Origin: Candidatus Heimdallarchaeota archaeon
GTDB taxonomy: Archaea > Asgardarchaeota > Heimdallarchaeia > Heimdallarchaeales > Heimdallarchaeaceae
Assembly: GCA_019057815.1 (NCBI GenBank)
Contig: JAHLWR010000040.1
Coordinates: forward strand, 1 to 13,211
DNA: 13,211 nt
Direction: 5' to 3'
In this document: piece by piece, positions 10,766-13,211 of the stretch
Position numbering within the stretch: position 1 is the stretch's first letter
How the letters are laid out: every line of letters starts with the position of its first letter
Notes under the pieces: model-generated
Told to the model about the DNA's origin: nothing
Databases searched by the model: none
The model's input: the letters and a program-made list of their open reading frames with translations, nothing else
Made by a program: the position numbers and the translations under genes

Positions 10766-11536
10766 TTACAATCTTTTTACTTTTCCAAAACCAAATGCTG
10801 TTCTTTTGCCTATCTGATAGAATTGGGCTAAAGATAATATTGTGTCTATTTCTTCATTTGACTCCTCGATCAAGTAAGAAACATTTCCGTATATTCCTTC
10901 CATCTTTATCGCTGGTCCAGTTCTCCTTCTCTGGTTCCATTTGAATAATTTTAAATCAACTTTTTGTGTCTTTGCTTTTATCTTATTCCAACTTCTCTCC
11001 CAATGTATTGGATAGCATTCATTAAGATAAAATTTATTGTATCGATTAATGCTTCTGACAAGAGAATCAAGAATTAATTGCAATTCTATATATAGTCGGG
11101 GTTTTCCTTCCTTGTAGAGGGTTGTAGGTGAAAGTAGTTGCATTTTTATGTATTTTGAGGATGGTGCTTTTTCAAATGATTCTCTTATTAGTTTTACTTC
11201 TTTTATTTCAGCATCCACTCCTGCAACATGAAGTTCAGATATTGTAAGCAGATGTTTAATCATCTTTTCAGCTAATTCTTCTAAATCTTCTAGAAAAAGG
11301 AAATGAATAAAAACTCCTGATTTGCCTTGTGAGGTATAAAAGAAGTACGGACGGAAAGGAATATTTTGATTTCTAAAGGCAACCCACAACTCTTTAGAAT
11401 CAAAAAGTCTTGACCCTAACCACCCTCGCAGGACAGGACCATAATAAGGCAATCTAGAAGAGGAATTTAGTTCAACAAAAAAAGAAATATGATGAATAGA
11501 TTTCGAAAGAAGGAAATTAATTTTATCCTTGTACAT
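10766..11536 (-). CDS. cas6: CRISPR pre-crRNA processing endoribonuclease Cas6
   Basis: GPVLRGWLG, PFRPYFF, LLSPT, C-terminal QIGKRTAFGFG G-loop. Start uncertain (ATG 11536 vs TTG 11557). Confidence 0.9.
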   Translation of the reverse strand: MYKDKINFLLSKSIHHISFFVELNSSSRLPYYGPVLRGWLGSRLFDSKELWVAFRNQNIPFRPYFFYTSQGKSGVFIHFLFLEDLEELAEKMIKHLLTISELHVAGVDAEIKEVKLIRESFEKAPSSKYIKMQLLSPTTLYKEGKPRLYIELQLILDSLVRSINRYNKFYLNECYPIHWERSWNKIKAKTQKVDLKLFKWNQRRRTGPAIKMEGIYGNVSYLIEESNEEIDTILSLAQFYQIGKRTAFGFGKVKRL

Positions 11537-11710
11537 AACTAAAAGAACAACTTTCAATTTATTAGTTTTTTCTTACTTTATCGCATTTTCTGGAAAGAAA
11601 AGTACAATTCATTTTGAAATTATTATGAAAGATGATTACATATTAACGATTTCAAAAACTAATTTAATTTAAGATATAGCTTTGATGAATTTACTAGTAT
11701 TTCATACAAA

Positions 11711-11857
11711 TTATGAGTGTTCATCTATATATTCTATAATTTCTCTTAAATTCCAATCTTCACATTCTTTGATTGGTGGTACATTAGGAATGAGTAATTT
11801 ATATTCATAATCATATCGTTGTCCACTGAGTGTAAAAAAGTTGACTAATCTTGCCAT
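11711..11857 (-). CDS. Small hypothetical ORF or gene remnant (48 aa)
   Basis: Hand translation MARLVNFFTLSGQRYDYEYKLLIPNVPPIKECEDWNLREIIEYIDEHS*, protein-like composition, same strand as cas6; no clear RBS. Confidence 0.3.
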   Translation of the reverse strand: MARLVNFFTLSGQRYDYEYKLLIPNVPPIKECEDWNLREIIEYIDEHS

Positions 11858-11957
11858 ACGCGCTCTAACTGCGTAAGAGGAGATGTAGAGGGAGAGGAAA
11901 AATGAACGTTTTTTCTACGGGTTTATATATATGAATTTAAACATATAGAGATAGAGA

Positions 11958-12198
11958 TAGTGTGATCTTCATCACTTATCTGTTTCGCAACTACACAAGT
12001 GGTTGTCCCTCAGTAAACTCTCCATGAAACAGGGAGACTAGCTAGCTCTGTGGTGATGACACACTAACTATAATGGAAAAGTCTTCGTGACTACCCCTCA
12101 ACGCACGTGAGGGGTCAAGGGTGAAACCCACTTCAAACGACGGTTAGAAAGCCTCTGGCAAGTTAAACCAAGTTTCATAACGTGCGTGAGTAGATCAT
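11958..12198 (+). ncRNA. Candidate structured non-coding RNA or non-autonomous mobile element remnant
   Basis: About 47% GC over 12001-12180 vs about 25% at 11581-11640 (hand count); many nested helices with G-U pairs on +; possible pseudoknot; TATA-like TTTATATA at 11922-11929. Confidence 0.5.
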
Positions 12199-12276
12199 GA
12201 AAACGACTAGGTCCTATTTTATAAAAAACTATACAATTTGTACATTTCAAGGAGTTATGATTAAATTTGTCAATTA

Positions 12277-12313
12277 TCAGTTATCTCCTCTTCTTCTACT
12301 ATAGTTAGAGAAT
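12277..12313 (-). repeat. Highly decayed trailer repeat remnant of array 2
   Basis: TATCTCCTCTTCTT at 12282-12295 is identical to 12362-12375 of the next degenerate repeat, one repeat-spacer unit (80 bp) away. Confidence 0.6.
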
Positions 12314-12356
12314 AGTTATGGGATAGAAGGAGAATGAATCCAAACTGTTATCATAA

Positions 12357-13211
12357 GTTACTATCTCCTCTTCTTATAGAGTTAAAATGTAACTGACTAA
12401 AATGCACCTTAAAAAATGTTACGTTACTACCTCCTCTTTTAACGGAGCTAGAATGTGACGTGTTAACCTCAGGGGCATTATGTTGTCTACCAGGGTTGAC
12501 GTTACCATCTCCTCTTTTGACGGAGCTAGAATGTAACTTGTCACAGTACAAGACACCACTAATCCTGTTCTTAGGTTACCACCTCCTCTTTTGACGGAGC
12601 TAGAATGTAACTAGAAATTTTAGATGAGGACTGGAAAAGTCCTCTTAAGTTACCACCTCCTCTTTTGACGGAGCTAGAATGTAACTCAAACTTGTTCATA
12701 TAGACTCTTGGCTTGAAGAAACCAAGTTACCACCTCCTCTTTTGACGGAGCTAGAATGTAACTATGAACCGTTTTACACGGTTTATAGATTGTTTATCGA
12801 GTTACCACCTCCTCTTTTGACGGAGCTAGAATGTAACTTGTTATTATAAGAATCCCCATCATAAGGCGTGGCTCTAACTCTAGAAGTTACCACCTCCTCT
12901 TTTGACGGAGCTAGAATGTAACGAAGAATCAGGCATTGGATATTGCTTGACCTTGAAGTTACCACCTCCTCTTTTGACGGAGCTAGAATGTAACGGCGTT
13001 AACCTTACTGCCGATCTAAGAAAAGCTAAATGTTACCACCTCCTCTTTTGACGGAGCTAGAATGTAACAAAAGACTGCTAAAAAGGAACAAAAGTTAGCA
13101 GAATAGTTGTTACCACCTCCTCTTTTGACGGAGCTAGAATGTAACGGCGTTAACCATACTGCCGATCTAAGAAAAGCTAAATGTTACCACCTCCTCTTTT
13201 GACGGAGCTAG
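12357..13211 (-). CRISPR. CRISPR array 2 (trailer end; continues right of the window): 12 repeats (last one cut by the window edge), 11 spacers of 29-48 bp
   Basis: Repeats start at 12357, 12423, 12501, 12575, 12649, 12726, 12801, 12886, 12958, 13032, 13109 and 13183. The first three carry 8, 3 and 1 mismatches, a trailer-end decay gradient. Confidence 0.97.

Follow-up and report, generated by a model that had tools for sequence, protein, structure and literature searches.

The window, meaning the whole stretch of 13,211 nucleotides of Candidatus Heimdallarchaeota archaeon DNA analysed here, carries a type III CRISPR locus on the minus strand between two arrays, with genes for Cas10, four RAMP proteins, Cas6, Cas1 and Cas2. 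Between the region upstream of cas6 and the degenerate-repeat end of array 2 lies a G+C island (0.43-0.48) amid A+T-rich surroundings, which a preliminary description made from the sequence alone had singled out as a structured RNA candidate at 11958-12198. The helices of that candidate are real but the unit to which they belong is larger, as alignment of its copies together with their flanks places the repeat at 11815-12187, approximately 373 nt. On the right side all copies diverge directly after ...AACGTGCGT (12187), and on the left side the sequence common to the copies reaches back to ACCGTCGTCCACTGAG. The element contains no transposase gene, and the sole overlapping open reading frame of at least 50 aa is a 50-aa minus-strand frame (12098-12250) that extends beyond the element into the flank.

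Searches of the organism's own 3.7-Mb genome with BLAST recover five full copies of the element on five contigs with identities of 88-100%. The window copy is on contig C20 and the other four, on C8, C27, C1 and C12, are 90-93% identical to it in the RNA region, a value that falls to 88-90% when the entire element is compared. Approximately ten partial copies are also present, several of them truncated, and three partial copies correspond to the last ~85 nt of a 652-aa open reading frame. The many dispersed copies unrelated to CRISPR by which an ordinary MITE was to be recognized are therefore found and located in the genome. Among 40 sampled relatives, the repeat or its right end occurs in 18 of the 24 genomes of the same family, distributed over two genera, and in none of the 16 genomes from other families of the order, an absence bounded by genome completeness values of 63-94%. 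Full gene-less copies, with identities of 75-94%, are present in ten genomes of the two genera including the organism's own, and the loci most closely related to that of the window belong to the Candidatus Heimdallarchaeota MAGs 8H_bin2 and AB_125. The parts of the element are collected in Table 1 together with the genes of the parent transposon.

Table 1. Parts of the gene-less element in the window, its candidate guide segment and the related transposon genes elsewhere in the genome (G000, own genome; L010, parent locus on contig C27).
Feature	Position	Strand	Basis or remark
Target-derived pentamer, ATCGT in the window copy	11815..11819	+	Left-flank table; empty versus occupied site
Left end (LE) common with the autonomous IS607-type element	11820..11856	+	93-95% to L010:348-387
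Left-arm spacer, conserved among gene-less copies	11857..11921	+	Alignment A1
Archaeal TATA-box promoter (TTTATATATATG...AATTTAAACATA), homologous to the tnpB promoter	11922..11945	+	Conserved in all copies
Domain 1, five-helix 5′ domain, 114 nt	11956..12069	+	Covariation; only gene-less copies
5′-domain helices P1, P2 and P3	P1 11958-64/12060-66; P2 11969-76/12052-59; P3 11979-86/12026-33	+	
5′-domain helices P4 and P5	P4 11987-94/11999-12006; P5 12034-37/12045-48	+	
Linker	12070..12093	+	Last ~12 nt still tnpB 3′-coding-like; alignments A1/A2, IS right ends
Nexus stem-loop CCCCTCA-ACGCACG-TGAGGGG	12094..12114	+	Stem invariant in 18/18 copies
Pseudoknot 5′ strand, loop bases CGCACG	12102..12107	+	Pairs with 12181-12186
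Small stem-loop 2 (GGG-TGAAA-CCC)	12119..12129	+	Genus-specific 12-nt insertion
Stem-loop 3	12135..12175; P9 12135-38/12172-75; P10 12142-48/12163-69; P11 12152-53/12157-58	+	
Right-end tip CGTGCGT	12181..12187	+	12181-86 is the pseudoknot 3′ strand
Candidate guide segment GAGTAGATCATGAAAACGAC, from the flank	12188..12207	+	Position relative to scaffold
652-aa TnpB, intact copies	L010:1084-3039 = G000 C27:146593-148548; C12:124020-125975; C21:21504-23459		
Sole cognate IS607 tnpA in the genome	L010:443-991 = G000 C27:~145952-146500		

The ends of the element match those of a TnpB-bearing parent transposon in the same genome. The left end (11817-11856) is 95% identical to the stretch just upstream of tnpA at the parent locus (L010:348-387), and the right end (12094-12187) is 83% identical to the parent right end (L010:3001-3082), the last ~97 nt of the element matching the part of the parent that overlaps the tnpB stop codon. 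Nothing in the parent element corresponds to 11946-12089. The 652-aa ORF of the parent is a TnpB, with a match to PF07282 (Cas12f1-like/TnpB TNB domain) at E = 5.7e-8, above the Pfam cut-off, and weak matches, below the cut-offs, to the TnpB, IS607_TnpB and Cas12f2 NCBIfam models. It aligns with TnpB and Cas12f chains from the PDB over the zinc-finger/RuvC-III region. On C27, a serine recombinase TnpA of the IS607 type is encoded upstream of this ORF (NF033518, E = 2.1e-45), and the resemblance to IS200/IS605 ends that had been read from the minus strand is thereby set aside. That no partner protein is encoded in the window is true, and three intact copies of tnpB are found elsewhere in the genome on C27, C12 and C21. 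The cognate tnpA contains an in-frame TGA at codon 11 (MLVRIGIAAE*WGVSASTVRRW...), within the first helix of the HTH, and is either a pseudogene or a gene that needs read-through.

Several related sequences accompany this parent family. Two further IS607-type tnpA genes, 34-38% identical, are located on C18 and C9, and a distant paralogue of the large TnpB (G000 C22:28175-30043) is 41% identical over 634 residues. A parent copy in the sister species (L045, G001 C206:1-4800) has a 580-aa passenger ORF after its left end and a tnpB split into frames of 454 and 198 aa. Another locus in the organism's own genome (L011, G000 C21:23674-23815) holds a truncated 5′ domain that has neither left end nor TATA box and directly adjoins a tnpB lacking tnpA, as if gene-less and gene-bearing copies had undergone rearrangement with each other.

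Between the two ends the element retains a promoter of the tnpB type. The TATA-like box TTTATATATATG at 11922-11933, approximately 25-30 nt upstream of the first stem, is present as the preliminary description had it, and the stretch 11926-11945 gives a 20-nt match (95%) in the C12 and C21 copies, to sequence terminating 15 nt upstream of the ATG of tnpB. A TATA promoter of the archaeal kind is what an Asgard archaeal host would lead one to expect. From the usual distance between TATA box and start site, the RNA would begin at ~11950-11956.

The right part of the predicted RNA has the organization of a TnpB guide scaffold. In omegaRNAs of IS605 and IS607 elements, consecutive stem-loops are found of which the first, the nexus, pairs with the 3′ end of the scaffold immediately before the guide (10.1101/2023.11.20.567912). 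The scaffold of the element likewise ends with the terminal CGTGCGT of the repeat. The hairpin at 12094-12114, whose whole 7-nt loop had been proposed to be complementary to 12181-12187, is real and its loop covaries with the tip, although the loop interaction comprises 6 bp rather than 7, since the first pair, A12101-T12187, is not conserved (the first loop base is A, U or C, opposite U). The remaining pairs were followed in 75 distinct right ends drawn from gene-less and tnpB-bearing copies, and compensatory changes are found at four of the six positions. These comprise C-G to U-A (four ends) or A-U (one end), G-C to A-U (six ends), A-U to U-A (one end) and, at the last pair, G-C to A-U (two ends), with 11 G-U intermediates and only 3 of 450 cells mismatched. 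In the parent copies the nexus hairpin also encodes the peptide PLNAREG near the C-terminus of TnpB; as the loop is coding there and the tip is non-coding, their changing in step argues for selection on the RNA. A nexus stem-loop joined to such a pseudoknot is the signature of TnpB omegaRNAs.

The rest of the scaffold is partly variable. The GGGT-GAA-ACCC hairpin noted at 12119-12129 is present but proves to be an insertion of 12 nt found only in copies from the window's genus and absent from the sister-genus copies and from all tnpB-bearing copies; the copy L026 carries a different insert of its own at that position. Stem-loop 3 has 94-99% of its cells paired, with compensatory changes in P10. 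An invariant sequence in this stem-loop, ACGACGGT (12137-12144), is reverse-complementary to 11815-11822 at the left junction (consensus ACCGTCGT). The left-junction stretch that it matches consists of an ACCGT motif and the first three bases of the element, with no covariation seen between the two, and the match may reflect a repeated binding motif for TnpA or a contact between RNA and DNA.

Upstream of the scaffold is a 5′ domain that occupies the place of the tnpB ORF and mRNA body. All the stems proposed for it are present, namely TAGTGTG/CACACTA (P1), TCATCACT/GGTGATGA (P2), TCTGTTTCG/TGAAACAGG and the hairpin GCAACTAC-ACAA-GTGGTTGT. The preliminary description had further let the two ends of the RNA pair (11962-11968 with 12192-12198), a match that is attributable to chance, as 12192-12198 lies outside the repeat, in flank that is different in every copy, and the pairing competes with P1. 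The plus strand from 11950 to 12210 folds at -78.1 kcal/mol with z = -2.96 against dinucleotide shuffles, compared with z = -1.44 for the minus strand of the same region. The covariation analysis that had been suggested as a check reveals compensatory changes in both parts of the RNA. In an alignment of 18 copies from ten genomes (A2), in which the five 5′ helices, the hairpin, the pseudoknot and the 3′ stem-loop were scored, 89.7% of pair cells are standard as against 32-44% when the partners are slid, and ten pairs show changes on both sides. For the 5′ domain, an alignment of 22 copies has 91% of cells paired and compensatory changes in 16 of 34 pairs, values that lean towards the model because the alignment was fitted by covariance model R1. 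Constant G-U or U-G pairs are numerous (20 of 21 at one P4 pair, for example), and as these would be A-C on the minus strand, the RNA strand is the plus strand, which is also the sense of tnpB in the parent. Second-stem pairing in the sister genus is displaced by one base, and the linker there forms a small hairpin (CAGA...TCTG).

The origin of the 5′ domain within the parent transposon receives no significant support from local alignment, the best score being 27 where shuffled sequences give 20.8 ± 2.1 with a maximum of 31. Covariance model R1 run over the genome matches only the MITE copies and their fragments, and RNAalifold applied to 12 parent 3′ ends reveals no conserved folding on the 5′ side of the nexus hairpin. 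Because the parent copies are without the domain, TnpB is not obviously in need of it. The best guess, held with low confidence, assigns it the stabilisation or presentation of a guide RNA not cut from tnpB mRNA. That it is a new functional RNA module, such as a stabiliser, a loading platform or a switch, is a tentative and rather doubtful proposal. As a stabiliser or loading platform, it could possibly allow a guide RNA that stands alone to compete for TnpB with no need of excision from a tnpB mRNA; as a switch, its invariant CCCTCA (12007-12012) could possibly pair with the nexus hairpin on its 3′ arm.

Insertion can be followed at G001 C35, the closest of the sister-species copies, whose counterpart locus in the organism's own genome (G000 C8) is empty. 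The empty site reads ...CATAACTGT/TCTTG and the occupied site ...CATAACCGT, the element ending in GTGCGT, and then TCTTG. In a longer view, ...AAACATAACTGT is joined directly to TCTTGTTG at the empty site, and the occupied site runs from ...AAACATAACCGT through the element (CGTCGTTC...AACGTGCGT) and then into TCTTGTTG. This sister-species site shows no target duplication; for the window copy itself there is no empty counterpart. Serine recombinases exchange strands at a core dinucleotide, and the comparison fits an exchange at GT, in which case the GT at 11818-11819 and that at 12186-12187 would represent the crossover dinucleotide and 12187 the end of the element. The sequence ACCGT is found at the left junction in 17 of the 18 other copies, with ATCGT in the window copy, and differs from the right tip TGCGT. 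As ACCGT would, after excision, abut the flank that matches the guide, it is likely a TAM-like motif. For the guide of the window copy, no second genomic site with a close guide match and an ACCGT motif was found.

The lack of target duplication and of terminal inverted repeats, together with the complementarity of the nexus loop to the right tip and of ACGACGGT to the left tip and flank, would also suit another kind of guide-RNA cassette, such as an IS110/IS1111 bridge RNA, an IS200/IS605 PATE, an IscB HEARO or a group I intron of the IStron type. Such an assignment is nevertheless highly improbable, as the ends match an IS607 serine-recombinase element with a TnpB passenger, the complementarity of loop and tip covaries as an intramolecular RNA pseudoknot, and Rfam contains no matching family, whether HEARO, RAGATH-18, the group I introns or others, even at E ≤ 10. 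With Rfam, a search of the whole window at gathering scores gives no match to the RNA region, and one of 11500-12450 at E ≤ 10 gives nothing beyond noise (snoRNA and miRNA models, E 0.18-8.6), which likewise leaves the suggested ribozyme without a match, and a tRNA/tmRNA scan found nothing. The covariance models for RAGATH-18/reRNA and for HEARO were tried in both searches and rejected. An IS200/IS605 PATE was rejected because the family's enzyme is a serine recombinase and not a Y1 (HUH) TnpA, and because no matching hairpin is present at the left end. A PATE in the strict sense, as had been among the options considered, is also at odds with the position of the CCCCTCA hairpin, which is an internal nexus 67 nt from the right end and not a subterminal end hairpin.

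The setting of the window copy raises the further alternative of a CRISPR-linked non-coding RNA of the type III locus, acting as a tracr-like RNA, a regulator of the leader or trailer, or an antisense RNA to the pre-crRNA. That the element is located between cas6 (10766-11557, minus strand) and the decayed end of array 2 speaks for such a role, as does the fact that a plus-strand transcript would enter the array end. It has however been largely refuted and has become very improbable. CRISPR repeats occur in the genome only on contigs C20 and C46, whereas the four other full copies of the element lie on C1, C8, C12 and C27, so that only one of five is near an array; the closest copy in the sister species is in an unrelated locus. 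A paralogous array end on C46 (C46:84487-) is 96% identical to the window from 12193 on and does not have the element, and the candidate guide segment from 12193 on accordingly belongs to the conserved end region of array 2. No anti-repeat is present, as the longest match to the CRISPR repeat on either strand is 8 nt, a length equalled in 61 of 300 shuffles and hence at the level of chance. Given the copies away from CRISPR contigs, the element-free array end and the missing anti-repeat, the position beside the array is incidental and the novel CRISPR-associated RNA envisaged earlier falls away.

The array end itself has some features of its own. The first three to four repeats of array 2, at 12283-12460 of the window, are degenerate (67-83% to consensus), and this decayed end is duplicated on contig C46 (G000 C46:84570-84690) with 96% identity. 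The orientation of the cas genes points to the minus strand as the one on which the two arrays are read, which would make the decayed end the trailer end and the element RNA antisense to the trailer. Where homology to the window from 12193 begins, C46:84474-84486 reads ATAGTGTGATCAT, to be compared with window 11957-11969. This 13-mer is identical to the 5′ strand of P1 as found in the C1 copy, with one base different in the C27 copy. Either a deletion scar between two GATC motifs or a chance match, for which a rough estimate is 3e-4, could account for it.

With its left end, tnpB-type promoter and right end encoding the 3′ core of an omegaRNA, the sequence at 11815-12187 is most probably a gene-less IS607-family MITE that keeps the core of the TnpB omegaRNA and would be used in trans for homing, a reading to which we assign a probability of roughly 0.87. 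The labels of orphan omegaRNA-like scaffold and of MITE, offered earlier as alternatives, apply together. In the proposed mechanism, the promoter would drive a plus-strand RNA of ~250 nt through the scaffold into the flank, of which 12188-~12207 (GAGTAGATCATGAAAACGAC) would become the guide, and TnpB made from the three intact genes would load this RNA in trans. After excision of the element, TnpB would cut the rejoined empty site, recognized by its ACCGT-like motif and the guide match, and repair from a sister chromosome or copy still holding the element would restore it. Such homing or retention logic has been shown for bacterial TnpB, and gene-less PATE-like elements (10.1101/2023.03.14.532601) and stand-alone omegaRNAs (PMC10691335) have been considered in the same light. 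Movement to new sites would need the TnpA of the family in trans, exchanging strands at the GT dinucleotide.

For the TnpB of this family, DNA cutting is putative, as its sequence has a histidine in place of the catalytic aspartate of RuvC-III. The motif reads KVNTH.NAA.NI where solved relatives have KVNAD.NAA.NI, and the substitution is found in 14 of the 14 family members examined from several genomes. Clades with Asp-to-His and similar conserved changes in the active site have been described in which the nuclease is probably still active (PMC10691335).

A less functional account is that the element is an inert, decaying MITE, a dead fragment whose folds are leftovers of the parent guide RNA without present use. 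Several copies are truncated, the cognate tnpA has its in-frame stop, and the window copy departs from the consensus of the left junction at two positions (ATCGTTGTCC versus ACCGTCGTCC) and carries two stem mismatches, one A-A in P10 and one A-G in P5. The stop codon and the left-junction changes suggest that the window copy itself may no longer be mobile. Inertness of the element as a whole is nonetheless unlikely in the face of compensatory pairing between genera in both parts of the RNA, including the 5′ domain found only in the MITEs, a TATA box conserved in all copies and three intact tnpB genes.

The homing MITE so proposed is a mobilised stand-alone omegaRNA in an IS607 MITE, a kind already known. 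Gene-less PATE-like elements often encode omegaRNAs that need to be used in trans (10.1101/2023.03.14.532601), mobilised stand-alone omegaRNAs function in trans (PMC10691335), and stand-alone omegaRNAs belong to the OMEGA systems to the extent that Altae-Tran 2021 is represented in PMC10691335. Like these, the element is gene-less and multi-copy, keeps transposon ends and a guide scaffold, has its effector genes elsewhere in the genome and would take its guide from the flank of each copy. It is unlike these in its parentage, which is of the IS607 type with a serine recombinase rather than of the IS200/IS605 type, where a Y1 transposase goes together with palindromes at the ends, and it further differs in its Asgard host, its archaeal TATA promoter and a conserved 5′ domain of 114 nt that its parent is without.

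Among characterized IS607 systems, the IStron of Clostridium botulinum (10.1101/2023.11.20.567912) shares with the family a serine TnpA, a TnpB ORF whose end overlaps the scaffold, a pseudoknot between nexus and 3′ end followed by further stem-loops, and, as judged at the sister-species site, insertion without duplication. In that element the core dinucleotide of the IS607 TnpA (GG) overlaps the TAM (10.1101/2023.11.20.567912), and a similar overlap is likely here, with GT in ACCGT where the IStron has GG within TGGG. The family further differs from the IStron in that it has no group I intron, that the window copy is gene-less and that its TnpB is much larger (652 aa) and has the histidine at the RuvC-III Asp position. 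The IS607 TnpB of ISFba1 takes its guidance from a right-end RNA, the reRNA derived from RAGATH-18, whose stem-loops and pseudoknots are needed for cleavage (PMC11061315). The right-end RNA of the family resembles it in having stem-loops and a pseudoknot, and is unlike it in giving no match to the RAGATH-18 model and in its scaffold architecture and TAM. A search of the literature found no paper on TnpB elements of this kind in Asgard archaea or Heimdallarchaeota.

For the CRISPR locus, these results remove a false lead, as the structured RNA beside array 2 is not a new CRISPR-associated RNA. For a little-studied family of Asgard IS607/TnpB elements they provide a scaffold backed by covariation, consisting of the nexus, the pseudoknot, a variable stem-loop 2 and stem-loop 3, together with an oversized nuclease that has histidine at a catalytic position. 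The likely TAM-like motif (ACCGT) and likely crossover dinucleotide (GT) are facts with which the family can be taken to the bench. Of wider interest is the conserved 5′ domain carried by the gene-less copies only, since if it is indeed a functional module, these elements would be an evolved "guide-only" parasite of the TnpB transposon and not a simple deletion product.
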